Part shown: one piece after another, positions 3,160 through 61,636 of the stretch
Layout of the letters: the number at the start of each line of letters is the position of its first letter
How positions within the stretch are numbered: the first letter of the stretch is position 1
Origin: Chiloscyllium plagiosum
Lineage: Eukaryota
Length of the DNA stretch: 64,000 nucleotides
Direction: 5' to 3'
Assembly: GCF_004010195.1 (NCBI RefSeq)
Contig: NC_057757.1
Coordinates: forward strand, 6,959,402-7,023,401
Translations under genes and position numbers: made by a program
Notes under the pieces: model-generated
Database searches by the model: none
What the model saw: only the letters and a program-made list of their open reading frames with translations
What the model was told of the DNA's origin: nothing

Positions 3160-4152
3160 TGACCCCAGCAGTGTGTGCCACCAGGCTGCCCTCTGACCCC
3201 AGCAGTGTGCGCCACCATAACCCAGGCTGCCCTCTGACCCCAGTGGTGTGAGCCACCATGACCCAGGCTGCCCTCTGACCCTAGCAGGGAGTGCCACCAT
3301 GACCCAGCCTGCCCTCTGACCCCAGCAGGGAGTGCCAGCATGACCCAGACTGCCCTCTGACCCCAGTGGTGTGAGCCACCATGACCCAGGCTGCCCTCTG
3401 ACCCCAGCAGTGTGCGCCACCATGACCCAGCCTGCCCTCTGAACCCAGCAGGGAGTGCCAGCATGACCCAGGCTGCCCTCTGACCCCAGCAGTGGGTACC
3501 ACTGTGACCCAGGCTGCCCTCTGACCCCAGCAGTGTGCGCCACCATGACCCAGCCTGCCCTCTGACCCCAGCAGGGAGTGCCAGCATGACCCAGGCTGCC
3601 CTCTGACCCCAGCAGTGGGTACCACTGTGACCCAGGCTGCCCTCTGACCCCAGCAGTGTGAGCCACCATGACCCAGGCTGCACTCTGACCTCAGCAGTAT
3701 AGGCCACCATGACCCAGGCTGCCCTCTGACCCCAGCAGTGTGTACCACTGTGACACAGGGTGCCCTTTGACCTCAGCAGTGTGAGCCACCATGACCCAGT
3801 CTGCCCTCTGACCCCAGCGGTATGTGCCACCATGACCCAGGCTGCCCTCTGACCCCAGCAGTGTGTACCACCATGACCCAGGCTGCCCTCTGACCCCAGC
3901 AGAGCATGCCACCGTGACCGAGGCTGCCCTTTGACCCCAGCAGTGTGTACCACTGTGACCCAGGCTGCCTTCTGACCCCAGCAGAGAGTGCCACCATGAC
4001 CCAGGCTGCCCTCTGACCCCAGCAGGGAGTGCCACAATGACCCAGGCTGTCCTCTGACCCCAGCAGGGAGTGCCACAATGACCCAGGCTGCCCTCTGACC
4101 CAGCAGGGAGTGCCATAATGACCCAGGCTGCCCTCTGACCCCAGCAGAGAGT
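3160..4152. repeat. 41-bp minisatellite (ccatgacccaggctgccctctgaccccagcagtgtgcgcca)
   Basis: About 24 tandem units in AP4M1 intron 3. Confidence 0.95.
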
Positions 4153-4408: not shown

Positions 4409-4505
4409 GTTGGTCAGTCTCATTAAGGATCACTGTGGAACTCTGAATGAGAAGACGCTGCAGTTAAATTTCGCTCTGGTCTATGAACTGCTGGATGAAA
4501 TGTTG
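4409..4505 (+). CDS. AP4M1: AP4M1 exon 4
   Basis: AG/GT; LVSLIKDHCGTLNEKTLQLNFALVYELLDEML (adaptin mu motif). Confidence 0.93.
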
Positions 4506-4804
4506 GTGAGTTTATACAGAGTGGGTTCCAGGGCAGGTCAGAGACATCGCCCAATCTTCAGACAGAGAATGGGGCTGAGACAGTCCCCTTTTTCAGACAG
4601 AGACAAGGACTGAGACAGTCCCCTTCTCAGACAGAGACTGAGGCTGAGACAGCGCCCTCCTCCTATACAGTTCCCATCTCAATCAGACTGCCGACACGAC
4701 CATCTTGGTCTTCACATGCCACGAATTGAATCAACCTCTGCAGTGCCCGGTCAACAACAGGAACCACCTCCAACCCCACTCTTTTCAAATTGCCCATCAG
4801 AAGG

Positions 4805-5500
4805 GAGCAGGGGGTGGGATTAGTTTGGGATCGGGAAAGGGCTGTGCAGACAGCTTGGGACAGTTGGATTAGTTTGTGATTGAGAGAGGACTGTGGAGAG
4901 ATTGTGGGGCAGTGGGATTAGTTTGGGTTTGACACAGGGCTGTGGGGAGAGAGCAGGGCATTGGGATTAGTTTGGGGTTTGATACAGGGCTTTGGGGAGA
5001 GAGCAGGGCAGTGGGATTAGTTTGGGGTTTGATACAGGGCTTTGGGGAGAGAGCAGGGCAGTGGGATTAGTTTGGGAATTGGCACAGGGCTATGGGGAGA
5101 CAGCAGGGCATTGGGATTAATTTGGGATTGGTACAGGGTTGTGGGGAGAGAGTGGAGCATTGGGATTAGTTTGGGGATTGATACAGGGCTATGGGGAGAG
5201 AGCAGGGCATTGGGATTAATTTGGGATTGGTACAGGGTTGTGGGGAGAGCATGGGGCATTGGAATTAATTTGGCACTGGTACAGGGCTGTGGGGCAGTGG
5301 AATTAGTTTGGGATTGATACAGGGCTGTGGGGAGAGCAGGGCAGTGGGATTAGTTTGGGAATTGATACAGGGCTGTGGGGAGAGAGTGGGGCAGTGGAAT
5401 TAGTTTGGAGATTGATACAAAGCTGTGGGGAGAGAGAGCAGGGCAGTGAGATAAGTTTGGGATTGATACAGGGCTACGGGAAGAGAGTGGGACAGTGGGC
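4805..5500. repeat. ~49-bp G-rich minisatellite (gggattagtttgggattgatacagggctgtggggagagagcagggcagt)
   Basis: About 14 tandem units in AP4M1 intron 4. Confidence 0.92.
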
Positions 5501-5859
5501 TGTAGGAGTGAGGAGAGCTGAGTGACTGAGAATTGAAAACGTCGCTGCTGATTCTGTGGAAGTAAAAAGAGGGAAAGAAATTTGCCCATCCGTGTGAAGT
5601 TATTCCGGGGGCTGAGGATTCTGATCCATGGGGAATCCCAGCAGATAGACATAACAATCAGGACATTTTCCCAGAACATCACACGCTCTGTGGGGATCTG
5701 GCGGAAGGGAGGGGGGAGTGGGTGGATGCACCCACCAGCGATCTGCTCTGAATGGGGCTGACCAGCCCCATTCTGGTGGGACAAGGAATGGGCCCTGTAG
5801 GGTGGGAGGGTGGGGGTGACAGGGTGTCGGTGGAATTGACCGGACTTTCCCCCACACAG

Positions 5860-5970
5860 GATTATGGGTACATACAGACCACCTCCAGCGACATCCTGAA
5901 GAATTTCATTCAAACGGTGCCAGAAACATCCAAACAATTCAACCTCTTTGAACTCAGCAACATTGGCCTG
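5860..5970 (+). CDS. AP4M1: AP4M1 exon 5
   Basis: AG/GT; DYGYIQTTSSDILKNFIQTVPETSKQFNLFELSNIGL. Confidence 0.93.
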
Positions 5971-6543
5971 GTGAGTGTTGGGAGTTGAGCCCCTCCACCC
6001 CTGAATTCTCCCCTCTCATCCTCCCCTCACCCTTTGGCCATTCCCCCATCCGTTCCTCCATCCCCACTTGTCCATCCCTCCCTTCCCTCCTCGATTACCC
6101 CCTCCGTCCATCTTCCCTTGTGCTCTTCCAATTGCCTCCTTGCTCCCCTCGTCCAATTTCCCCCTCCCTCCCCTNNNNNNNNNNNNNNNNNNNNNNNNNN
6201 NNNNNNNNNNNNNNNNNNNNNNNNNNNNNNNNNNNNNNNNNNNNNNNNNNNNNNNNNNNNNNNNNNCACATGTACCCCTCTCTTCGCTCGCTTTCCCTAT
6301 ATTCCACTCTGTCTCCCCACCCCTCTCGCTCGCTTTCTCCCTACCCTGCTCTCTTCCCCCAACTCCTCCCGCCCCCCCCTTCCTCTCATCCCTTGTACTT
6401 CCCCGTCCTCCTGGCCCTCCCCAGGGTGTGCCTGAATGTGCTGGGGGAGCGTGAGGTTCAGGGCTTACAGAGAATCCCAGTTTGGGTGGAGCTCTGTTGG
6501 GCTTCAGAAGCCCCATGTCTCTAACCTATGCTTCCTTTTGCAG

Positions 6544-6624
6544 TTTGGAGCAGACACCCAGCAGAGCAAAGTGGCTCCCAGCATCGCTGCAAGCAGACCG
6601 GTGTTCGCAATGCGCACTGAAGAG
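6544..6624 (+). CDS. AP4M1: AP4M1 exon 6
   Basis: AG/[29 protein letters not shown] (human [20 protein letters not shown]). Confidence 0.93.
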
Positions 6625-6891
6625 GTGATTATCAGGAGCTGCACCCGGTTGTGGGGGGGTGGGGAGGGGTGTTACCCGCTGGGCCTGAGACAACACTCCT
6701 CCCAGTTTCTCAGCAAGGGTCTCCTGAGTAGAGGCCCCCAGGACAGTGACACCACTCCCTCAGATAGAAGTCCCCTGAGAAATGACTCTCACTGGGGAAT
6801 GGGACTGTACGACGGGTACGGGTCCTCTGGGATTGGTCTGGGGGTCCAAACGGAACATTTAATACATACAGATTTTGTATCATCACCACAG

Positions 6892-6954
6892 GGGCTGAAG
6901 ACGGAAATCTTTGTGGATGTCATTGAGCGACTGACGGTGGTCATCGGAGCCAAC
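6892..6954 (+). CDS. AP4M1: AP4M1 exon 7
   Basis: AG/GT; GLKTEIFVDVIERLTVVIGAN. Confidence 0.92.
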
Positions 6955-7153
6955 GTGAGACAATGTTTTATCAGAAGGATTGGTATCTGGGGGTGTGGGA
7001 GTGTGTCAACGCTCTGTATCAGGGCTGGGAGGGTGTGGGAGGTATCGACGCTCTGTGTCAGGGCCCAGGGGGTGTGGGAGGTGTCGATGCTCTGTGTTGG
7101 GTTCAGTGTTCCTGATCTGTCATGACTTACCTCTCACTGGGAATGTGTTCCAG

Positions 7154-7220
7154 GGCAGTTTGATGAGGGCGGATGTTCAGGGAGAGGTGCGGATGAAATG
7201 TTTCTTGCCCAGCAGCACAG
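7154..7220 (+). CDS. AP4M1: AP4M1 exon 8
   Basis: AG/GT; GSLMRADVQGEVRMKCFLPSST. Confidence 0.92.
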
Positions 7221-7722
7221 GTACATGTTCCAGCTCAGCCCTAAACTAATTCCTGCACAAATTCAGGCTGTAAACATGCCAGTCTGTCTGCCTGTCTGTC
7301 CCCTTCTTTCTCCCAACTCTATTCCTTCCACTCTCCCAGCTTCTCTCCCTCCCTCTCTTCTCCCCCCCTTCTCTTCTCCAACTCTCTTTGCCATCCTCTC
7401 TGTCTTTCACTGTCCCTCTCTCCTTCTGTTGCCTCTTTTTGTTCTTCTTTCTCCTTTTTCTTTCTCTCTCTGTCCCTCCCTGCCTTTCTCTTTCACCTTT
7501 ATCTTCCTCCTTTTTCTCTTTCTCTCCCCCCAGCCTCCCAACGTCCCTCCGTCTCTCTCTCCATCCTGAACCTGTTCACATTTGATGATCCTGCTAGCCC
7601 TAGCTTCTCCCCATCACCATCCTAATCTCGGTGTCTCTCATTCTGGGCGGGTCTTAGTAACTTGCAAGATTTTGCCCTCCTCCGGTTATGAATGACACTT
7701 TTTTATTTGTCTCTCCTGCCAG

Positions 7723-7776
7723 AAATCCGAATGGGGTTGAATGAGGAGTTTAGCATTGGGAAAGCCGACATCCGAG
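7723..7776 (+). CDS. AP4M1: AP4M1 exon 9
   Basis: AG/GT; EIRMGLNEEFSIGKADIR(G); ends in phase 1. Confidence 0.9.
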
Positions 7777-8349
7777 GTGAGTGGGTTCGACAGGAGGAGG
7801 GTTGGCGCTCAGGGGATGTAGGGCGTACGGGGTGAAATGATCATGCACTCCGACAAGCCATGCCAACACTCAGTTTCTGTCACCTCACGCACTGCCTGAC
7901 CTGCTGAGCTCCCCCAGCCTTCTGTCTGTCTGTTTGTTTCAGACGTCCAGTCTCCGCGGTGTTTTGCTTTTATAGAATCCTGGCCGATCCAGTCCCTCTT
8001 CACACGTCAGTCCTGCCATCCCAGGAATCAGTTCTTTATACATAACAGCGCAGTACAGGCCCGTTCACAGGATCCGGGTGTTGCTGGGATAGTCCAGCTT
8101 TTATTGTCCTTTTCTTATTGCCCCTTGAACACGGTGGCTGGTCCACGTTGCTGCGGGTCTGGAGTTACATGTAGGCCAGACCGGGTAAGGATGGCAGATT
8201 TCCATACCCTAAAGGGCATTAGTGACTCAGAAGGGTTAGCGCTCGCCTTCTCATTCCAGATTTGGTCACTGAGTTTGAAATGCTACCACTGACCGTCGTT
8301 AGAGTATCACCTTTCGAAGGTTTAACACAGTCCTCTCTGTTCGGAATAC

Positions 8350-9185
8350 TGTTACAACACAGAGTAAACCCCTCTGCTAATTTAAACCCGACACACAAAG
8401 AAGCTCACTTCATGCTACAATCTGTTAAATTTTGAGAGGCAAAGACCTATTCCAGAGTCACTATTTAAAGTAAAAATAAACAATTTTATTCTTTAAGTCC
8501 AAAAAAGAACATTAAACAACTGTTTACAACTCCTTCCTCTTAAACCTACCTTTTACCTCCCACTCGACAATACTGGTCCGATCTGTTCTCCTTGGTTGAG
8601 GGGTCAATCATGAGCAGGCATTTCTTTAGGTAAAGGGTGGGACATTCAGAGGGGATTTGGGAAAATACTTTTTCACTCAGTGGGTGGTGGGAATGTGGAA
8701 TGCACTGTGGCTTGCGAAGGTCGTGGAGGCTGGAAACCTGACAACCTTCAAGAGGTGTTTGGATGAGCACTACAGTATTCTGCCTCACAACTCTTTCATA
8801 TGATCAGGTACCTTTCAGAGAGCTATTCTGCTAACATCTATACTTGTTGGTGTTCTTGGCAGTTCTCCCCCTAACTGTTCAAAATACCCCCGAAGCATCG
8901 AATCATTTCATTGATTTGATGTCATCCCAAACAGTAAAATGCAAATTTGATTGGATTTTGACAGTAAAATGCAAATTTGATTGGACTTTGGTATCTGGGG
9001 AATAATTTCAACTAATTGGCCGAATTTGAATTTGTTGTTGTTCCATGGCAACCCAGCACTAGCTATTTGTGTCAACCAAATGTTACGTTTTTACTTTGTT
9101 CAGGACACTCTGTGCTTTCATTCAGTCCTTGTTCACTTCCTCTCTCTATCTTAAAGGTACAGTACACACCTACGCCTTGACAACA
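8350..9185 (-). mobile_element. Probable solo LTR (TG...CA, 4-bp TSD ATAC) with an internal CR1 fragment
   Basis: atac|TGTTACAA...TTGACAACA|atac; AATAAA on minus at ~8485; CR1-like piece ~8582-8790. Confidence 0.5.
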
Positions 9186-9724
9186 ATACCTCCAAGTTTC
9201 GTGTCATCTGCTAAGTTTGAAACTGTGTCCTGGCCAGTTGAGGAGGGATTGCTCCAGATTGAGGGGGTAGGGAGAACTGTTTTGATGAACACCGAGATAT
9301 TGGAGGCTCTGTTGGGCTTAAAAACAGACAAGTCCCCTGGCCCGGATGAACTGCATCCCAGGCTGCTGTGAGAAGCAAGGCAGGAAATTGTAGCACCTCT
9401 GATGCAAACTTTTAATTAGAGTCATGCAACACGCACATAGACCCTTCGATCCAACCAGTCCCTGCCGACTATAATCTCGAACTAAACTAGTCCCATCTGC
9501 CAACGCTTGGCCCATCTCTCTCCAACATTTGAGTGACTGCAGTCCAGCGGTGTTCCACAAGGATTAGTACTGGAACCCTGAATGTTTGTTTTATATATAT
9601 AAATTATATAGATAAACATGTGGGGGGAATGTTAAGCAAGTTGACAGATGACACCAAGACGGGGGAGGCGGTGTTTTGTGATTGGGATGGGTGAGCTGGG
9701 TGGGGATGTTTTGTGGTTGGGATG

Positions 9725-10179
9725 NNNNNNNNNNNNNNNNNNNNNNNNNNNNNNNNNNNNNNNNNNNNNNNNNNNNNNNNNNNNNNNNNNNNNNNNNNNN
9801 NNNNNNNNNNNNNNNNNNNNNNNNNNNNNNNNNNNNNNNNNNNNNNNNNNNNNNNNNNNNNNNNNNNNNNNNNNNNNNNNNNNNNNNNNNNNNNNNNNNN
9901 NNNNNNNNNNNNNNNNNNNNNNNNNNNNNNNNNNNNNNNNNNNNNNNNNNNNNNNNNNNNNNNNNNNNNNNNNNNNNNNNNNNNNNNNNNNNNNNNNNNN
10001 NNNNNNNNNNNNNNNNNNNNNNNNNNNNNNNNNNNNNNNNNNNNNNNNNNNNNNNNNNNNNNNNNNNNNNNNNNNNNNNNNNNNNNNNNNNNNNNNNNNN
10101 NNNNNNNNNNNNNNNNNNNNNNNNNNNNNNNNNNNNNNNNNNNNNNNNNNNNNNNNNNNNNNNNNNNNNNNNNNNNNNN
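9725..10179. other. Assembly gap (455 N), probable location of AP4M1 exon 10; a smaller gap lies at 6175-6266
   Basis: N run; exon 9 ends phase 1 and exon 11 starts phase 0. Confidence 0.9.
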
Positions 10180-11498
10180 CTCCTTTATCTTTCGCAGTAA
10201 GTTGGTGCAGTCTCATATAAATACCATCATCTGTATTTGTGTTGATGTACAGGGTATTCGAACTTTCCAAACAATTGGATTAGTAGAATTCAACAATGTC
10301 TTTTTGCAAAGTCTTGGAATGTTATCTCTTTTCTAATTAAAACGAGAAAGTGATTTCACTCATTGGCAGGATTGAAGGTCCGAGTCCCAACGTATCTCTT
10401 TCCTCTCAGTTCACTGACAAATTTCCCCTTAGAAAAATCTGTTGCTGGGCAGTAACTTTTTGTAATCTTCAAAGATTATTCATATCAGCAGGTCTTAAAT
10501 GTACCAGCCCAGTTCCCAGTAAAGTGTAATCATTCAGTGACCACACAGCTCCACTTTTCCTTTGAGGTGTGGGGTAAAGCACCTAATAACTGAATTATTA
10601 TTTCCTAATAAAAATCTGTCGTTTGAAGATGAGTTACCTCTCCCATTGCATCCCTCAGCCCCCACAGTTCTTTCTCTCTCACTACCTCTCCGATACATTC
10701 TGTCTCTCCAGCTGACTCTGATGTAGTCTCCTTTCTCTCTCTCTCTCTCTCTCTCTGTCTCTCCCCAGCTGACTGTGATGCAGTATTCGTTATCGGACGA
10801 TCTTCCAGTCTCTCTCCCGTTCCGACTGTTCCCAACTGTGGACAAGGACACCGACAGCAAGTGAGAAACTTCACCTAAAAACTCCTCCCTCACCAGAGTA
10901 GTGTACTGAGAGATTTAGTTGGGGGTAGAGTTGAGGGAATAGTTTGGGTTAAGGAGCAGGGGCCAAGTTTTGTTTTTCCCCCCAAAAGAATCCCCCCGAG
11001 CTCTCCTCTCGCTGATTACACTTTGAATTCCAGGGGCCATGTTTTGTTTTTGCAGGGGCTCCTTTATCTTTCGCAGTAAGTTGGTGCAGTCTCATATAAA
11101 TACCATCATCTGTATTTGTGTTGATGTACAGGGTATTCGAACTTTCCAAACAATTGGATTAGTAGAATTCAACAATGTCTTTTTGCAAAGTCTTGGAATG
11201 TTATCTCTTTTCTAATTAAAACGAGAAAGTGATTTCACTCATTGGCAGGATTGAAGGTCCGAGTCCCAACGTATCTCTTTCCTCTCAGTTCACTGACAAA
11301 TTTCCCCTTAGAAAAATCTGTTGCTGGGCAGTAACTTTTTGTAATCTTCAAAGATTATTCATATCAGCAGGTCTTAAATGTACCAGCCCAGTTCCCAGTA
11401 AAGTGTAATCATTCAGTGACCACACAGCTCCACTTTTCCTTTGAGGTGTGGGGTAAAGCACCTAATAACTGAATTATTATTTCCTAATAAAAATCTGT
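10180..11498. repeat. Identical 440-bp direct repeat (10180-10619 and 11059-11498) flanking AP4M1 exon 11
   Basis: Appears base-for-base identical at offset 879; first copy abuts the N gap. Confidence 0.9.
10769..10860 (+). CDS. AP4M1: AP4M1 exon 11
   Basis: (CT)n polypyrimidine tract + CAG; LTVMQYSLSDDLPVSLPFRLFPTVDKDTDS; GTGAG donor. Confidence 0.9.
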
Positions 11499-11659
11499 TG
11501 TCCTTGCACGACATATATAAAGTAGGCGTTGGTTTCCCAGAGACCACATGTTTAATTTGGCACAAGACAGTCGTCATAAGTTAGCAACGAGAGATTTTTT
11601 TTAAAAAACTGACACATGCTTCCACACACAAAATAGACCATCGCCCTCAATACAAATGA

Positions 11660-12570
11660 GGACCATGAGCAGGAGTAAGCCATCCGGCCCTTCGAGCCTG
11701 CTCCACCAATCAATATGACCATGGCTGATCACCTACCCTCTCACCACAAACCTTCATTCCTTTACTATTCAAAGAATTGCCTACCTTAGTTTTAAAAACA
11801 TTTACTGAGGAAGCCTCCACCCACTTCACTGGACAGGGAATTGCATGGATTCACAACCCTCTGGGTGAAGAAGTTCCTTTTCCATTCCATCCTAAACCTG
11901 TTCCCCTGAATTTTGAGGCTATGCCCCCTTTGTCATAGTTTCCCCTGCCAGTGGAAACATCCTCTCTACTTCTATCTTATCTATTCCCTTCATAATTTTA
12001 TATGTTTCGATAAGGTGTTCCCCCCCTTATTCCTCTAAGTTCCAATGAATATAATCCCAGTCGACTCAGTCTGTCCTCATAAGCCAAACCCCTCAACTCC
12101 AGAATCAACCTCGTGAACCTCCTCTGCACCCCCTCCAGTGTCAGTACATCCTTTCATAAGGAAGGAGACCAAAACTGCACGCAGTACTCCAGGTTTGGCC
12201 CCACCAGCACCCTGTGCAGCTGCAGCATAACCTCCTGTTTTCAAAGTTATGCAGCAGACCCTTAGTCCAACACGTTCATGCTGACCAGATTTACCAAACG
12301 AAACTAATCCCATTTACCCACTTCCCTCTAAACCTTTGCTATTCACGTATCTGTCCAAACGTGTTGTAACTATACCTGCAATTACCATTTTCTCCAGCAG
12401 TTCATTCCACACACCCCTCTGTGTGGAAAACATTGCCCCTTGGGGCCTTTTTAAACCTTTCTCCTCTCGGCTTAAAACTGTGCCCTCTAGTTCTGAACTT
12501 CCGTACCCTCGGCAAAAGAGACTTTTGCTGTTTACCTAATCTGTGTCCCTCATGATTTTATTAACCTAAC
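11660..12570 (-). mobile_element. Two CR1-type LINE 3' fragments
   Basis: Reverse-complement CR1 ORF2 end and 3' UTR motifs. Confidence 0.75.
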
Positions 12571-12815
12571 CAGCTGTGCACAGGTGAGGTTACAACTGAA
12601 CACATCTCTTTCTTCACTCTGGTCACCACAGGGATTGTGTTGCAGACCTTCAGGGAGAGAATTTTCCCTCAGCCCTGAGTGTTTGGAGCATTTAGTAGGG
12701 GGATGTTGGGGTGGGCATCTGTTTCTTTTCTTGCTTTGTATCTCTTCTGTCTCAGTGTTTAATTATTGTCAACTATATTGAGCTCTGCTCAATTTTCCCT
12801 CTGTCCCTCTTGCAG

Positions 12816-12863
12816 CCGCCTCATGGTGTATCTCAAACTCAGGTGTGATTTGTCTCCAAAGAG
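12816..12863 (+). CDS. AP4M1: AP4M1 exon 12
   Basis: AG/GT; RLMVYLKLRCDLSPK(S). Confidence 0.9.
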
Positions 12864-12966
12864 GTGAGTAGCTGATCCTCTGGGCTCACACGAGATGTCA
12901 GCGCTGATATTGCTCAGTTTTAACCCCTGACCCGAGTCACTAATTGCCTTTTGTTTTGATCTACAG

Positions 12967-13017
12967 TCAAGCTTTGAACGTCACTGTACACCTACCTGTG
13001 CCCAAAGGGACAACAAG
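12967..13017 (+). CDS. AP4M1: AP4M1 exon 13
   Basis: AG/GT; QALNVTVHLPVPKGTT(S). Confidence 0.9.
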
Positions 13018-13139
13018 GTCAGAAAATACATCTTGCTTTACTCTGTATCTAAGCCTGTGCTCTGTCTGTTGTGGGAATGATTCAGACGGAGCTTTACTGT
13101 GCGCCTAATCCTGTGCCGTCCCTGCCCTGGGAGTGTCTG

Positions 13140-13457
13140 GTGGAGATTAGCACTGCTGCCTCACAGTACCAGGGATCCAGGTTCGATACCAGCCTTGGGC
13201 AACTGTCTGTGTGGAGTTTGCACATCCTCCCCATGTCTGCGTGGGGTTTCCTCTGGGTGCTCTGGTTTCACAATCCAAAGATGTGCAGGTCAGGGTGGAT
13301 TGGCTATGGTGAATTGCCCAGAATGTTCAAGGATGTGTAGGTTCGGTGCTTTAGTAAGAGGATCGGGGAATGAGTCTGGGTGGGTTACTCTTTGGAGGGT
13401 TGGTTTAAGATTTGTTAGGCCAAAAGGCCTGTTTCCACACTGTAAGGATTCTATGAT
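13140..13457 (+). mobile_element. V-SINE (HE1-like), degenerate; an opposite-strand copy lies at ~13585-13865
   Basis: ttagcactgctgcctcacag...gtgtggagtttgcacat...ccacactgtaaggattctatg. Confidence 0.75.
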
Positions 13458-14426
13458 TGATTCTGCTTTCATTTTAATAAACTAGAAAGCTGGCTGTGGT
13501 GGTGTTTGTTGCCATAGAGAAGGTGATGGTGAGCTGCCTTCTGAAACTGCTGCAGCAGTCCCACCCATACAGTGCCGTTCATAGAATCCCTACCTCTGAA
13601 GGGCATCTTTCTCATACCACCCCTGCCATCCCTGTAACTCTGCATTTACCATCGCTCATCTACCTAGCCTGCACACCCCTGGATACTACAGGCAATTTAA
13701 CATAGCCAATCCACCCTAACCTGCACATCTTTGGACTGTGGCAGGAAACCCATCCAGACATGGGGAGAACATGCAGACTCTAAGACAGTCACCAGAGGCT
13801 GAATTAAACCTGAGTCCTTTGTACTATAAGGCAGCAGTACTAACCACTGAGCCATTATATCGCCCTTTTGACTCTGACAGTGAAGGAACAGTGCTGAGTC
13901 AATGCTGGGTGGTCCATCTAGTTTAAGTAAATGACTGTGTAGTCTGTGCCTCAGGCTGGTTAAGAATCAAACCCCACTGCTGTCGGTCTGGAGTCTCCTA
14001 GACCAGACTAGGTAAGGACAGCTGATTTGCCTCCCTAAGGAACAGGAGTGACAGAGACCAACATTTACAACCACCAGCCGTAAAGGGAGTTGGAGCTGAT
14101 CACTGAGTTCTGGTGATGTAATAAAAACAGAACTATGGAGTTAGCAGCAGGATCACATCCTGGATTAGATCCGGTCTGAGGGAAGATCTGTTCCTGGACT
14201 TGGATCCATTCTGGGTCAAAGTCTCACTGTGGATCAGGATCCTTTCTGGAACAGTGCCTCAAGACGGTTCAGGATCCCGTCTGGGTTAGGTTTCCACTCC
14301 TGACTCTAAATCTATTCTGGGGCAGTGGCTCATTGGAGACATGGAATCCAGGCTGGAGCAGGATCAAATCATTAGATTTACAGTTTGTCACAGGAGCTGT
14401 CACTGACTCTGGGTAACCGTTTACAG

Positions 14427-14544
14427 TCTGTCACAGGAGCTGAGCAGTCCCGATCAGCGTGCAGAGCTGGACTCAGTCACTCGGTCTGTGCACTGGACCA
14501 TCCCACGTTTCCACGGAGGCTCTCAGCTCTCTGCCCTCTTCAAG
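14427..14544 (+). CDS. AP4M1: AP4M1 exon 14
   Basis: [43 protein letters not shown]. Confidence 0.9.
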
Positions 14545-16009
14545 GTGAGTTCTGGGTGAGTGGAATGGGGCAAACAGTTTGCGAGGAGTGGTGGAAATAG
14601 ACAGTTGAGGAGGGGCGCGAGAGAGAAGGGAGCTGGGTAAATTTGTTCGGACACGTCCAGAGTTATGCAAGATTGAGTCAGGAAGAGTGCTAGCGATCAG
14701 CAATAAGGTAGATTTAAAAAGTAGGCTTTAGCTTTAAACTTTAACAATTAAAAAGCTCGAAAGAATTTTCCCTAAAGTTTCAATACCCCAAGTAGGTGGA
14801 TTACTAACAGTCGTAAAACCCGGCTATTGCATAAAGGCCGTTCAACTCATCAAGTCTACAGAAACCCGAACAGCATCCCACCCAGACCCTAACCGCATAA
14901 CCCTCCATCTTTACCATGGCTGATCCTTATATGCAATGCTGCAATTCACCGTGGCCAATCTACCTAACCTGCTCATCTCTGGACAGTGAGGACACTCGTG
15001 CAAATGCCACATCGTCACCAGAGGCTGAAATCAAACCCAGGTCCCTGGTGCCACAAGGCAGCAGTGCGAGCCATCGTGCCACCACGAGAACGTAGATCAA
15101 AAAAGAAAAAGGGGTGTCAGGGGTGAGGGAGTGTTCGTGTGAATCCCTGTAGCAATGCCAGGGAGCAAATTGTGAACTGTTTGAGTGGGGAAGGCTTGGC
15201 GGAGAATAGACAGAATCAGCAGCATACTTAATTCCAGCTTCACACAAGGTACTGGGGAGAGGACAATCCTCTGTTGATTAAAGATTCACTTTACATGAAC
15301 AAAGACTGGGACAGGGGTTAACGTACAGATAGACCTATCAGTGGAATATGGCTAGTATTTTCCTGCAAGGTGGTGTTCATTGGGAATTCAATTATTCACC
15401 ACTATTACTAATGGACTTGGGATGACTGAGTGGAAAAGCCCATACAAATGGCAAGTGTTGGCCTAATCTCAGCAATGCAGACAGACGCATAAAATTGCAG
15501 CTGTCTGACAGACTATAGGTTACAGTCGTTCCTGTAGAAAAGGCTCAAAAGAAGAGGATCCAAAACTACAACTAAATAGAAGATAGAACAAAGAAGTGAC
15601 ACCAGAAGATGTTCCAAGGGGACAGCAGTGGGCTGGCCATCAACCTGGAGAAAGGAATTGACTCACGAAGCAAGAGGCAGATTTTTGTTAGTGTGCATTT
15701 GGAGAGAAGGCTGGGTGATGCAGTGGTTTCAGATTCACAAAGGCCTAAGATATGGAATGTAGAACTGGGCAGAGCAGGTGAGCTCTATGTTTTAGATGGT
15801 CGGATGACTGACTGCAGTTTGGGTTTGTTTGTACACAAATCACCAAGTTAACATGTCAGTGTTAAGCAATCAGCCAGAAATATGTCTGTGTTTGGATGGG
15901 TTTATGGAGGGTGATGCTCCTCACCCTTTTGCTGAGGAACGTGTTAAGGGCTGAGGAATGCGAAGTGACCATTCTAACTGGTGTCCACATTTTTCCCCAC
16001 CCTCTGCAG

Positions 16010-16201
16010 CTGGAGGTTCCAGGATTAAGCGCCTCGTCTCTGCTGGAGCTGGGTCCCGTCTGCATGCAGTTCGAGCTCCCCATGAGCACCTGCTCAGGGC
16101 TGCAGGTTAGGTTCCTGCGTGTATCCAGCACACATCCCCCACTGCCCCATCGGTGGGTCCGCTACGTCACACACAGCGACTCCTACGTCATCCGCCTGTG
16201 A
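16010..16201 (+). CDS. AP4M1: AP4M1 terminal coding exon 15
   Basis: [38 protein letters not shown]...[17 protein letters not shown] (human ...SGLQVRFLR...KWVRHLSHSDAYVIRI). Confidence 0.93.
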
Positions 16202-20931: not shown

Positions 20932-21003
20932 ATCAATGTCGAGAATACTGGAGTCGAACAGATCCTGCAACAGACCGGCTCGGCCCTGTCTGATCGGCGG
21001 AGC
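20932..21003 (-). CDS. STAG3: STAG3 penultimate coding exon
   Basis: tttcAG|APPIRQGRAGLLQDLFDSSILDID|GTAAGT. Confidence 0.85.
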
Positions 21004-21256
21004 CTGAAAGAGCGAGACAGACACACACACAATCATAGAAAGGATTTCAAGACAGCTACAAGCCTGCGGCATATAGATCCCTGGAGGTCGACACAGAGAG
21101 AGATAGCAGTGAGTTGGCAAACACCCAACACGGGCCAGCCGTGGCTCAATGACTCTCATTTCAGACGATTGAGTAGATAATCTAAGCTGACAACCAACTA
21201 ACTGCAGTGCAGCCATGTGGTTAGTCATTTACAGGTACCATCGTGGGCGGGGTAGG

Positions 21257-22042
21257 GTCAGTCAGTGCCGCAGGAGTGCCATATCAATCCCATGTCAGTC
21301 AGCACCGAGGGAGCGCCGCACCATCGAAGGGTCAGTCAGCACCGAGGGAGCGCCGCACCATCAAAGGGTCAGTCAGCACCGAGGGAGCGCCGCACCATTG
21401 AAGGGTCAGTCAGCACCGAGGGAGCACCGCACCATCGGAGGGTCAGTCAGCACCGAGGGAGCACCGCACCATCGAAGGGTCAGTCAGCACGGAGGGAGCG
21501 TCGCACCATCGAAGGGTCAGTCAGCACCGAGGGAGCGCCGCACCATCGGAGGGTCAGTCAGCACCGAGGGAGCGCCGCACCATCGGAGGGTCAGTCAGCA
21601 CCGAGGGAGTGCCGCACCATCGAAGGGTCAGTCAGCACCGAGGGAGTGCCGCACCATTGGAGGGTCAGTCGGCGCTGAAGGAGCGCCGCACCATCGAAGG
21701 GTCAGTCAGCACCGAGGGAGCGCCGCACCATTGAAGGGTCAGTCAGCACCGAGGGAGCACCGCACCATCGGAGGGTCAGTCAGCACCGAGGGAGCACCGC
21801 ACCATCAGAGCGTCAGTCAGCACCGAGGGAGCACCGCACCATCGAAGGGTCAGTCAGTGGCGAGGGAGCGCCGCACCATCGGAGGGTCAGTCAGTGGCGA
21901 GGGAGTGCCACACCATCGAAGGGTCAGTCAGCACCGAGGAAGCACCGCACCATCGGGGGGTCAGTCGGCGCTGAAGGAGCGCCGCACCATCGAAGGGTCA
22001 GTCAGCACCGAGGAAGCACCGCACCATCGGGGGGTCAGTCGG
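21257..22042. repeat. 37-bp CpG-rich minisatellite array (cagtcagcaccgagggagcgccgcaccatcgaagggt)
   Basis: About 20 tandem units; a second array at ~22363-23050. Confidence 0.95.
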
Positions 22043-23050
22043 TCAATGTCGAGAATACTGGAGTCGAACAGATCCTGCAACAGACCGGCTCGGCCCTGTC
22101 TGATCGGCGGAGCCTGAAAGAGCGAGACACACACACACAATCATAGAAAGGATTTCAAGACAGCTACAAGCCTGCGGCATATAGGTCCCTGGAGGTCGAC
22201 ACAGAGGGAGATGGCAGTGAGTTGGCAAACACCCAATACGGGCCAGCCGTGGCTCAATGACTCTCATTTCAGACGATTGAGTAGGTAATCTAAGCCGACA
22301 ACCAACTAACTGCAGTGCAGTCATGTGGTTAGTCATTTACAGGTACCATTGTGGGCGGGGTAGGGTCAGTCAGTGCCGAGGGAGCACCACATCAATCCAA
22401 TGTCAGTCAGCACCAAGGGAGCGCCGCACCATCAAAGGGTCAGTCAGCACCAAGGGAGCGCCGCACTATCGAAGGGTCAGTGCCGCAGGAGTGCCATATC
22501 AATCCCATGTCAGTCAGCACCGAGGGAGCGCCGCACCATCGAAGGGTCAATCGGCGCCGAGGGAGCGCCGCACCATCGAAGGGTCAGTCGGCGCCGAGGG
22601 AGCACCGCACCATCGGAGGGTCAGTCGGCGCCGAGGGAGCGCCGCACCATCGGAGGGTCAGTCGGCACCGAGGGAGCACCACACCATCGGAGGGTCAGTC
22701 GGCACCGAGGGAGCGCCGCACCATCGGAGGGTCAGTCGGCGCTGAAGGAGCGCCGCACCATCAGGGGGGTCAGTCGGCGCTGAAGGAGCGCCGCACCATC
22801 GGAGGGTCAGTCGGTGGTGAGGGAGCACCGCACCATCAGGGGGTTAGTCAGTGCCAAGGGAGCGCCGCACCATCGGAGGGTCAGTCGGTGGCGAGGGAGC
22901 GCCGCACCATCAGAGGGTCAGTCAGCACCGAGGGAGCGCCGCACCATTGGAGGGTCAGTCGGCGCCGAGGGAGCGCCGCACCATCGAAGGGTCAGTCAAC
23001 ACTGAGGGAGTGCCACACCATCAGAGGGTCAGTGCTTTGGGAGCACTGAC
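22043..23050 (-). repeat. Tandem duplicate (offset ~1110) of STAG3 penultimate exon + intron + 37-bp minisatellite, lacking the donor
   Basis: 22043-~22375 matches 20933-~21268 with about 10 differences, all intronic. Confidence 0.9.
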
Positions 23051-24108: not shown

Positions 24109-24318
24109 CTGGAGAAGAAGGGGGAAAAGGAAGAGGACGTTAGGTGCCTCACACAGGCAGCCACACAATCATACGGACAGCAAACTGGCTTCGGTGAAAG
24201 GGGTGTGGATGGAATACTCGTCGACAGTGTTCGTGGTGGAAATGAAAGACAGTCCCAGAAGCACTTCATTGCTTGCGAGAAGCCTGGCTTAATCTTTCAG
24301 ACTGCAACCCGAACCTAC

Positions 24319-24502
24319 CTTTGTGCAAATTCAGACTCTGACCCCTTCTCCGAATCCTGGTCATCAGAGCTCTGCAGACTTCTCGTGTCCCACTGGGGTG
24401 GTCTCAGGATGGTCGAGGTCAGTATCGGAGTTCTCAGTTTACCGCCCACGGGCATGCTGCCACCACTCTGCAGCCACACACCATCCGAACTCAGATCTGA
24501 AA
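24319..24502 (-). CDS. STAG3: STAG3 exon
   Basis: VSDLSSDGVWLQ...LRTPILTSTILRPP...GSESEFAQ (human TPTLTSTAV...GSELDFAQ). Confidence 0.82.
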
Positions 24503-25044
24503 CTGGACACAGACATGCAGACGTGGGCAGTCAGCAACACTCACAGCCTAATTAATTACAGAGATCCAGAAGCAGCCATGGTCCCCTCTCCCGTCCCACA
24601 CTATCTTCCCAAATGGGGTTCCAGGTCCAATTCTGCACCCATCAGCACAAAAACCAAACGCTTTGAAAGATGGGGTGGAGGCATGAAGCCAGTCAGGGAG
24701 ATCTATTTATTTTTTGTTTTACAGGATGCTGGCAAGGTTAATGCTTGTTGCTTATTCCCCATTGCCTTTTGAGACCAGCTAACAGTCAGCTACACAATGT
24801 GGGTCTGGGATAACACGTAGGTCAGGCCAGGTAAGGACATCAGTGATCTACAGGCAGTTCTGCGATAACACATTTTTCATTAATGCCATTGGGCGAATGG
24901 GGAATGCAGTTTCCAAAGCGTGAACTTTTAAAGTGTGTGTCAACTGTAGGGCGATTAGATTGCCAACATTTTTAGGTGTTGTTTGTACTCTGAGATTTTT
25001 GTCTAATCCCGGGTGGTGTGGGAACACCACTATCGCATGTTTAT

Positions 25045-25392
25045 TCATAGAATCCCCTACAGTGTGAAAATAGGCCCTTCGTCCCAGCAAGTCACACCAA
25101 CCCCAAAAGAGTAACCCACCCAGACTCATTCCTACCATATTACTGTACATTTAACCCCGGCTAATGCACCTAACCTACGCATCCCTGAACATTATGGGCA
25201 ATTTAGCATGGCCAATTCACCTCACCCGCACAGCTTTTGGATCGTGGGAGGAAACCAGAGAACCCGGAGGAAGCCCACGCAGACACGGGGAGAATGTGCA
25301 AACCCCACACAGACAGTTGCCCGAGGCTAGAATCGAACCCAGGTCCTTGGTGCCGTGAGGCTGCAGTGCTAACCACTGAGCCACCGTGCCAA
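25045..25392 (-). mobile_element. V-SINE (HE1-like); further copies at ~14830-15085(-), 27627-27975(+), 30330-30680(-), 31573-31867(-), 43590-43923(-), 50477-50805(+), 55005-55300(+)
   Basis: tRNA-like head ggcacggtggctcagtggttagcactgc and V-domain tgtgtgg..tttgcacattctccccgtgtctgcgtggg. Confidence 0.8.
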
Positions 25393-25881
25393 CCCGCTCT
25401 GTAACTGCCTGTATGCGGTATTCACAAATCAGATGGAGGGTCTGATGAAGGGTCGCTGGACTCAAAACACCAGCTCTGCCTTCTCTCCACAGATGCTGCC
25501 GGATCTAACTGAGATTTTCCAACGTCTTTATTTCAGTTTCAGGGTCAGCTTTCAATTCCAGGTTTTGTTTGGAGCCATTTTACTGAATTTAAATTTAATC
25601 AAATGCCAAGTTTGGATTTCAACCCACACCTCCGAAACATGAGCCTTGTTGGCTGGAATACTGGTTACTGGACTATTGGTTATCTTACTACGAGACCATT
25701 GTGTTTGTTGAGAGGGAAAGGATGCAGACTCATGGGGAGGAGCAGGATATTAGAAAGGGGGGCTTTGGAGAGGGTGCAGAAATCAGTGAGATGGAGCCCA
25801 AGGATGGGGACTGAAGGTGGGTTACAGAATCCTGGGGCAGGGAGGATGGTTTTGGGATGTTGCAGTCCTTCCACTTCTTAC

Positions 25882-26075
25882 CTTCCAGCCTCCTCCTCTT
25901 GGCAGACGATGTTGGTGCTTTTTTGCTGCGGGCACTCAACGTTCTGCTGCTGATCACAGACACAGTGTCATCTTCCCCCCGAGCCAGGAGCGAGCGACGG
26001 TACAAGGTCAGCGGGAGCCAGCCCTGGGTGCTCAGGTTGACGGGAGCCGGGAACGTCTTGTCAAGGTAGCCGAGG
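25882..26075 (-). CDS. STAG3: STAG3 exon (complete copy)
   Basis: AG/GTAAG; LGYLDKTFPAPVNLSTQGWLPLTLYRRSLLARGEDDTVSVISSRTLSARSKKAPTSSAKRRRLE. Confidence 0.87.
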
Positions 26076-26169
26076 CTGCGGGCAGAAGAGCGGGTTAGCA
26101 GAGCATCACCGCCAACACGGAACTGGGATGGCACGGCAGCTTACTGGGGGAGAGGGAAGGGGTTTGGTA

Positions 26170-26371
26170 CTGATCACAGACACGGTGTCATCTTCCCCCC
26201 GAGCCAGCAGCGAGCGACGGTACAAGGTCAGCGGGAGCCAGCCCTGGGTGCTCAGGTTGACGGGAGCCGGGAACGTCTTGTCCAGGTAGCCGAGGCTGCG
26301 GGCAGAAGAGCGGGTTAGCAGAGCATCACCGCCAACACGGAACTGGGATGGCACGGCAGCTTACTGGGGGA
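26170..26371 (-). repeat. Tandem partial duplicate (offset 220) of STAG3 exon 25882-26075 with acceptor but no donor
   Basis: 202 bp copy of 25950-26151 with 3 substitutions. Confidence 0.9.
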
Positions 26372-26640
26372 AGGTCAGTGCCTACTCAAATGGCCCAAAT
26401 GTCCTATTTCCACACTGTAGGAATTCTATGATACTGTGATCTGCCATCTCCCTACCATGTCAACATAGTCTTCTTCGACAATGCTCGTGTGAACTGTCTG
26501 GGATGTTGCGCTACACTGGAGATGCTACACAGATTATTTCTTGTTCCACATGCACAGACCCAGGAATAATCAACTGTGCAAAGTTGAACCCAGGCTCGCC
26601 CACACACCCTGTGTCCATGCACCTAACCTAGCTTACTCAC

Positions 26641-26769
26641 ACTGCCTTCTTGTCCTGACGCAGCAGTTTGACTGAGAATTCACTGATGACATCGAGGAAC
26701 AGCAGGTTCTGGGGAGGCAAGTCTGAAGCACTCGGATGATACTGCTGGAAGGCGAATCTTATCCCATCC
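26641..26769 (-). CDS. STAG3: STAG3 exon
   Basis: DGIRFAFQQYHPSASDLPPQNLLFLDVISEFSVKLLRQDKKAV. Confidence 0.9.
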
Positions 26770-28154
26770 CTACGATGAGAAGGAGCAGACCAGAGGCAGG
26801 AGAAAGTGATCAGAATACAGGCAAATAAATCAGAGACAAACTACAGATGGTGAATAAATGCTCGCAACCTTTATGTAAACACATTCACAGACGTGGATGT
26901 GATTGGCAAGGCCAGTATTCATTGCCCACCCTAACTGTCCTTGATAAAGTGATGGTCAGTGCCCTCTTGAACTGCTACAGAAACTGGCCTGTAAACGTTA
27001 GGGAGTTCCAGGATTTTGCCCCAGTGACACTGAAGTAATGATATACTTCCAAGTCAGGATGCTGTTTGGCACTGAAGGGGACTTGCAAACTGTGTTCCCA
27101 TCCTTCTGCTTGGCCCTTCCCAACAGAACGGGTTGGGGTCTGCACAGCGCTGTTGAAAGAGCCTTGGTGTGTTGTGGCAGTGTATCCTGTACATGGTCCA
27201 CGTTGCTGGCACTGTACACTGGTAGTGGAAGGAGTTAACTTTAACCTATAGTAGCCTGCTTAACAGGCATCCTATGTTGTGGATGGTTTTGAGCTTCTTC
27301 AGTATTGTTGGAGCCACATCCATCCAGATACAGGGGGAATATTCCATCACACTTGTGCCTTGTCAATGCCGGACAGGCTTTGCAGAGTCAGAGAAGGAGT
27401 TACCCACTATGAGATTCCCAACTTCTGTCCTAGCCATCTTTAAAGTGATACAGAGTTCAGCCAGAAACAATTTTTCTCAATTGATCTCCATTTCCCCTCA
27501 ACCCTAGAATTATTTGTACGCTTGTATTATTCGTAACGGCAACACGTGTAACGTGAAAAAATATTGTTTAAGTATCACCCTGCCCCAGACCATAAATGTC
27601 TGCAAGCCACTAGATCATATTCTCAGGTGGCACAGTAGCTCAGTGGTTAGCACTATGCCTTACTGTACCAGGGACCAAGGTTCAATTCCACACTCGGGCA
27701 ACTTTCTGTGTGAAGTTTGATATCCTCTCTGCTTGGGTTTCCTCAGAGTATTCCAGTCTCCTCCCACAGTCCAAAGATATGCAGGTTAGGGTGGATTGGC
27801 TGTGCTAAATTGCCCATAGTGTCAAGGGATGTGCAGGCTTTATGGATTAGCCATGGGGAATGTAGGGTTACAGGGATAGGATAGGAAGATGGGTCTCGGT
27901 GGGCTGATTTTCGGAGGGTCGGTGTGCACCTGATGGGCTGATTGGCCTGCTTGCACACTGTAGGGATTCTGTGATTCTCAGCCAATTATACGGATGCTTC
28001 CTGCAAACATTACAAGACTGAAAGCTCTGTGTGCCCACTGCATAAAACTATCGCAACATTCAAAACTGCACTTAGCATCCAGAGACACACATCCTGCTTC
28101 CTAAACCCTTCCCTGCCTTCCCCAAAACAGTCCAGATCCAAGTCCCATACTCAC

Positions 28155-61141: not shown

Positions 61142-61636
61142 CTGGAGAACACACCGGAATGAATGTGAGTATACATGGCAGACTGAAACACGTGCAAAAG
61201 AATTACATTCTTCCTGCAGCTTGTAAACAAAGAGGCCTTTTGACCCAACTCATCCGTTCTGATTTTTAAACAATTATTTCATGGGTTACGGACGTCACTG
61301 GGTCTGGTGGCCGACCCTAGTTGGCTCTGGAGAAAACAGTGGTGAGCTGCCTTCTTGAACCAAAGCAGTCCATTTGACGTAGGACCCCACAATGCTGCTC
61401 AGGATGAAGACTTCACACCTATTCAACATATTGATTCACAGAATGAGAGTGTCACTGGCTCAATTAGCATTTACTACCCAGCCCTAATTGCCAGGAGGGC
61501 AGTTAAGAGTCAACCACATTGCTGTGGATGTGAAGGCCAGACCAGGTAAGGATGACATTTTCCTTCCCTAAAGGACATTAGTGACTGGATGTGTTTTTTC
61601 CAACCACTGACAATAGATTCATAGCCATCATTTACT

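Follow-up and report, generated by a model that had tools for sequence, protein, structure and literature searches.

The partial exon repeat in the cohesin gene STAG3 of the shark Chiloscyllium plagiosum is real in the assembly, but probably not in the shark. We examined it within a stretch of 64,000 nucleotides, called the window in the following. The upstream copy of the repeat is most probably a false (heterotype) exon gain that brings in sequence from the second haplotype and exists in the assembly, not in the animal. The downstream copy, 25950-26151, is the real single copy, and 26168-26371 is the probable second-haplotype sequence standing in for missing intron. An earlier note on this DNA had left open whether the upstream copy is an alternative exon under protein-level constraint or the product of two haplotypes assembled in tandem. 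The second reading is the one that the data favour.

Results

Identity of the gene

STAG3 is a meiotic cohesin gene. A tblastn search with protein record P0001 places a STAG gene at 61144 to about 20932 of the window (minus strand), and its naming as STAG3 in the earlier note is borne out by the protein tree and by the neighbouring AP4M1 gene. The tree is a quick IQ-TREE run with 24 rows and midpoint root, and its rows include no true vertebrate SA-2. In it, the sequences from sharks and rays cluster with SA-3 of bat, hamster and frogs and apart from SA-1 (SH-aLRT 100, branch 0.1). An AP-4 mu-1 match is found at 16040-16198 on the plus strand (E 5e-15), giving a synteny of one neighbour; AP4M1 also sits in the human STAG3 region according to the part of PMC6375806 used here. 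The gene falls into the clade of vertebrate STAG3 (cohesin subunit SA-3) and adjoins AP4M1, which makes the assignment to STAG3 well supported, in contrast to the public shark and ray records, which are labelled SA-1-like or SA-2-like. The shark protein has a longer N-terminal region, with about 1400 aa compared to 1228-1244 aa for P0273 and P0226. The sections of PMC8470780 that we draw on give general STAG3 background, and we found no relevant literature on STAG3 cohesin in sharks.

Two side observations concern the neighbour and the tree. The AP4M1 gene lies tail to tail with STAG3 at about 4500-16201 of the window on the plus strand, and its last exon matches human AP-4 mu-1. Four snake and frog records labelled SA-2-like (P0257, P0261, P0281 and P0241) form a clade of their own in the quick tree, with long branches and distinct from both SA-1 and SA-3. 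They are possibly a further vertebrate STAG paralogue, in a tree that contains no true SA-2 row.

Structure of the repeat

The 202-nt repeat claimed in the earlier note is present in the assembly, with 25950-26151 matching 26170-26371 at 98.5% identity (blastn, E 1e-98). Tandem Repeats Finder reports 25950-26371 with a period of 220 and 98% matches, and a blastn search finds no third copy of the 202-nt unit in the window. The two copies are separated by 18 nt (26152-26169), and there is no N gap at the joint, nor any N between 10179 and 64000. Base-by-base comparison reproduces exactly three differences between the copies, at 25964/26184, 25988/26208 and 26063/26283. As had been stated, all are silent (Thr ACT/ACC, Leu CTC/CTG, Leu CTT/CTG), and the copies agree in each of the 76 intronic nt. 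The upstream copy is directly adjoined by a repeat fragment which we take to be SINE-like. The public protein model P0003 carries the label Chiloscyllium plagiosum. Its cleanly aligned C-terminal exons are 100% identical to the window, and it takes the downstream copy as its 194-nt exon. The coordinates are collected in Table 1.

Table 1. Features around the duplicated STAG3 exon, in window positions (a slash in a motif marks the splice site)
Feature	Position	Strand	Basis
True STAG3 coding exon, 194 nt, AG acceptor, AAG/GTAAGA donor, LGYLDK...KRRRLE	25882..26075	-	translation, P0003, contigs
Downstream (second-transcribed) 202-nt copy: 76 nt of intron end and 126 nt of exon	25950..26151	-	X1 record 7
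Donor-like site CCA/GTAAGC, in both copies; no use seen	26139..26147	-	sequence and translation
"Spacer", ancestral intron adjoining the intron end	26152..26167	-	X1 record 7, X13 record 15
Two junction letters and upstream 202-nt copy	26168..26371	-	contig depth; allele at 25988
Very high-copy repeat fragment; public contigs break there	26372..26435		10 further similar stretches in window
Upstream STAG3 exon	26641..26768	-	tblastn; X5 record 23
Downstream STAG3 exon	24319..24502	-	tblastn; X9 record 24 matches exactly 24319-24502
Second partial-exon duplicate, same build, penultimate STAG3 exon	20933..22398	-	22043-~22398 vs 20933-~21290

Contigs across the joint

Four of the 24 listed runs (X1, X5, X9 and X13) were compared with 24250-26850, all as contigs, not reads, and all from individuals other than the assembled animal. 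X1 is the sole DNA run of the species that was compared, among 8 runs with half or more of the words. Its assignment to the same species rests on two matches, of 694 and 448 nt, with 0 differences. None of the listed runs is recorded as RNA; X5 and X9 were treated as such solely because their contigs are spliced or end at exon borders, and X13 comes from a relative.

X1 record 7 (992 nt, depth 7.04) agrees with the window at every letter from 25474 to 26167, as a single piece. It crosses the whole downstream copy unbroken and then continues with 298 letters past 26167 that do not fit 26168 onward. Record 15 of the relative X13 leaves the window at the same base, 26167, with 66 letters left over. 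The tandem junction, as given in the assembly, is absent from the contigs of the independent conspecific DNA run X1 and of the relative X13. Since both runs depart at 26167, the spacer up to this base is ancestral intron. The 298 non-fitting letters mean that the true intron continues for at least about 0.3 kb, and that the upstream copy occupies its place.

The depth over the upstream copy is in line with this picture. Contig depth is 0 over 26251-26337 in all four runs, and over 26164-26250 it amounts to 0.69, 0, 0 and 0.67 across the four; zero depth alone proves little, since 5 contigs of X1, 6 of X5 and 5 of X13 fit two places. After subtraction of records 7 and 15, the letter-depth left unexplained in the bin 26164-26250 is 32 for X1 and 37 for X13. 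A junction contig at depth 2 would be expected to cover about 26168-26238 and to add about 140 letter-depth in this bin, so that the residual 32 and 37 are too little for a contig with the junction and the two nearby variant letters. Contigs of this kind drop rare and heterozygous variants. For X5, the uncovered parts 26164-26337 and 26512-26598 are holes and were not counted as DNA evidence. On the far side of the upstream copy, X1 record 8 and X13 record 16 both end at 26407, and we considered these ends as a second break. This was rejected because the contigs simply end in the repeat, where summed contig depth reaches 3e4 to 2e5 in the bin 26338-26424; 26372-26406 is neither confirmed nor contradicted by the two records.

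The same contigs bear on the idea that the upstream copy stems from an unlinked partial STAG3 duplicate which the assembler pulled into the intron. Undisplayed contigs contribute depth at 26077-26167 in X1 and X13, and our search for copies was confined to the window, both of which would agree with such a source. Against it, identical stretches of 88 and 74 nt should break the X1 contig, which is unbroken over the unit, and X1 depth in the bin 25990-26076 is exactly that of record 7 alone. We regard an unlinked source as highly improbable. The surplus depth at 26077-26167 beyond the displayed records is an observation in its own right. Either one single-copy contig of ~35 letters with its end at 26167 or a number of two-place contigs could account for it, and it may hint at a short repeat within the intron sequence that is missing.

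Differences between the copies

The silent nature of all three differences speaks for a constrained second exon. For unconstrained copies, counting the possible changes in the unit, three of three synonymous differences have a P of 0.005-0.008. For alleles of a constrained exon from which amino-acid changes have been purged, P is 0.03-0.04. The pattern, which was picked after the fact, thus favours constraint five- to six-fold. A silent pattern of this kind would also arise between two alleles of a single working exon, and constraint therefore needs no second exon. The complete identity of the 76 intronic nt is improbable for alleles as well (P about 0.03-0.04), which counts against the allelic reading.

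Of the three differences, one is allelic. The upstream-copy letter at 25988 (G>C, the letter of 26208) is found in the full-length spliced single exon of X5 and also in X13. The other two upstream-copy letters were not seen as alleles among the difference rows listed, and at these two sites X5 has the downstream-copy letters. Haplotypes of comparable divergence may occur at the locus, as suggested by two X1 contigs over 24668-24825: one equals the window, and the other has 4 other letters and a 2-nt insertion. The comparison covers 158 nt at a distance of 1.1 kb, and one of the two contigs, at depth 2, may hold errors. The 2-nt insertion of the non-window contig is also present in X9 and X13, and two of its letters recur in X13. 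As a side observation, this agreement with the relative X13 indicates that the window carries the derived states at 24668-24825.

Splicing and protein records

The contigs taken as RNA show use of the normal acceptor at 26075. The junction 26641>26075, which had been proposed as one of the junctions to look for, is present in a spliced contig of X5 (record 23). In X9, the match of record 30 begins at 26075, preceded by 380 letters of the contig, and coverage returns across the upstream exon. From this one displayed piece, we infer that X9 also joins the upstream exon to 26075. These contigs speak to the presence of junctions, not to their absence. X5 and X9 have no contig on 26170-26337, but the copy may be absent from these animals, and minor isoforms can be lost from contigs. 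Repeat-derived contigs dominate the joint table (429 joints, 2231 loose ends), and the missing rows for 26641>26295 and 26171>24502 carry no weight.

Two products had been proposed for the acceptor at 26295. Reading on from it gives the truncated peptide ...VISTKPLPSPPVSCRAIPVPCWR-stop, which our translation reproduces. The second product, a 125-nt exon ending at 26171, is indeed in phase with the 194-nt exon, but its donor includes the junction letters 26168-26169. This donor, TCA/GTACCA, is weak, and X1 and X13 are already off the window at 26168-26169. A stronger-looking donor-like site, CCA/GTAAGC between 26145 and 26144, had been overlooked. It lies 69 nt above the true acceptor. Spliced after the upstream copy, it would give a computed 151-nt exon and a frameshift.

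A fixed functional exon under protein-level constraint would be either a regulated poison exon or this mutually exclusive 125-nt exon, from which the basic KKAPTSSAKRRR segment is missing. The silent differences and the kept reading frame of the 125-nt exon are in its favour, and the tissues of X5 and X9 are unspecified, with minor isoforms prone to loss from contigs. A fixed feature should be present in X1, however, where it is not seen, and the donor rests on letters that neither X1 nor X13 contains. Further points against it are the empty stretch 26170-26337 in X5 and X9 and the content of the copy itself, which duplicates the same 42 residues and adds nothing but truncation. The exon is single and whole, with its basic segment, in all 41 elasmobranch protein records that reach it; these are mostly automatic models, and 4 of the 45 records examined fall short of the exon. 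Judged by X1, a fixed functional exon is largely refuted at the DNA level. The tandem junction is absent in both X1 and X13, and the first reading of the earlier note, an alternative or poison exon under constraint, is not supported; we give it hardly any probability.

Other duplicates and repeats in the window

Two N gaps lie in the window, which comes from a gapped assembly. Directly behind one of them (9725-10179) begins a duplicate of 443 nt whose copies, 10180-10622 and 11059-11501, differ at 1 position. From its sequence and position, this duplicate in the AP4M1 gene looks like a gap-flank assembly duplicate. A second partial-exon duplicate within STAG3 has the same build as the one discussed here. 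Its copies differ in 0 of 70 exon columns and in 15 of 288 intron columns (about 5%). The first-transcribed copy has the intron end and the acceptor but no donor, and runs into the 37-nt minisatellite. This second duplicate is probably false too. The protein model P0003 reads through it at its C-terminus into the minisatellite, whereas the 11 other full-length orthologues from sharks and rays in the alignment all terminate in DDF or EDF. From this alignment, the C-terminus of P0003 is probably wrong. Three long minisatellite arrays are present in the window, at 3181-4147 (41-nt unit), 4805-5499 (50 nt) and 21294-23033 (37 nt).

Discussion

A false exon gain would account for the joint in the following way. 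In the real intron, 26167 and the high-copy repeat fragment would be separated by a further stretch of at least about 0.3 kb. The assembly would have lost the intron stretch beside the repeat fragment, and the gap would have been closed by a path that starts in the fragment and continues on the other chromosome, through its intron end and exon. This gap-filling path would end after 126 coding nt, where it was butted onto the true contig end at 26167. The upstream copy would then represent the other haplotype of the sequenced animal, and the two apparent copies would be two alleles of one working exon, which is the reason to expect differences at silent sites only. A simple tandem duplication would not also delete intron, which counts for the false exon gain.

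The case resembles the false exon gain (FEG) described as a heterotype false duplication by Ko et al. 2022 (PMC9516828). In the sections of that paper used here, false exon gains occur where heterozygosity is raised, with joints that consist of gaps or result from erroneous gap filling, and gap-filled joints without N are also allowed. Shared with STAG3 are an exon segment that appears twice in a gene of a gapped assembly, copies that may differ like alleles (as seen at one of the three sites) at a locus with possibly divergent haplotypes, and a joint without support from independent sequence, which for STAG3 comes from individuals other than the assembled one. In contrast to the published cases, as far as these sections describe them, the STAG3 copies have no N gap between them, the copy is partial and lacks a donor, and intron is replaced. 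The test in that work uses reads of the assembled animal, while here contigs of other individuals were used.

The most serious competitor of the false exon gain is a real private or low-frequency allele in which a templated copy from a different haplotype took the place of at least about 0.3 kb of intron. The copy would comprise the neighbouring intron end and exon, splicing would mostly skip it, and any use of the 26295 acceptor would lead to a frameshift or early stop. The lack of N at the junction agrees with such an allele, as does the short TCCCCCAG stretch that the join of repeat fragment and copy has in common with the true intron. X1 is one individual and compatible with a polymorphism, and the portion of PMC9516828 considered here cites a true allele-specific tandem duplication inside one contig. 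The allele requires a deletion and an inter-homologue templated insertion together, however. It leaves no trace in X1, and two other near-identical local duplicates lie in the same window. We consider this explanation unlikely. Less likely still is its stronger form, a segregating allele with inter-homologue templated replacement in which the donor-less copy sits 220 nt upstream and its identical acceptor competes in germ cells with the true one.

Mutually exclusive exons derived from tandem exon duplication (Hatje et al. 2017, PMC5740500) offer a second comparison. As in the published part on which we rely, the STAG3 copies are adjacent and have an intact AG acceptor, and the putative 125-nt exon would keep the frame. 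In contrast to such exons, the STAG3 copy has no genuine donor and no amino-acid difference, no bridging junction for the upstream copy is seen among the contigs of X5 and X9, and the copy is found in neither the conspecific nor the relative. The prediction step given there uses a length within 60 nt; the putative STAG3 exon, with 125 versus 194 nt, is 69 nt shorter. Retention or fixation of the upstream copy is not seen in X1 or X13, nor in the 41 protein records with the single whole exon. According to the part of Martinez Gomez et al. 2021 (PMC8373072) considered, catalogued human mutually exclusive exons are mostly over 425 million years old.

If the segregating allele were true, a frameshifted SA-3 or one that lacks the basic segment would be a natural weak allele of a meiotic cohesin, and the same event would have occurred twice in STAG3, given the same build at the penultimate exon. 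An allele that is real and spliced would offer a natural experiment on the competition between acceptors and on the basic segment near the C-terminus of SA-3. If the repeat is an artefact, the lesson is one of caution: differences that are all synonymous are the look of two alleles, and not just of two constrained exons.
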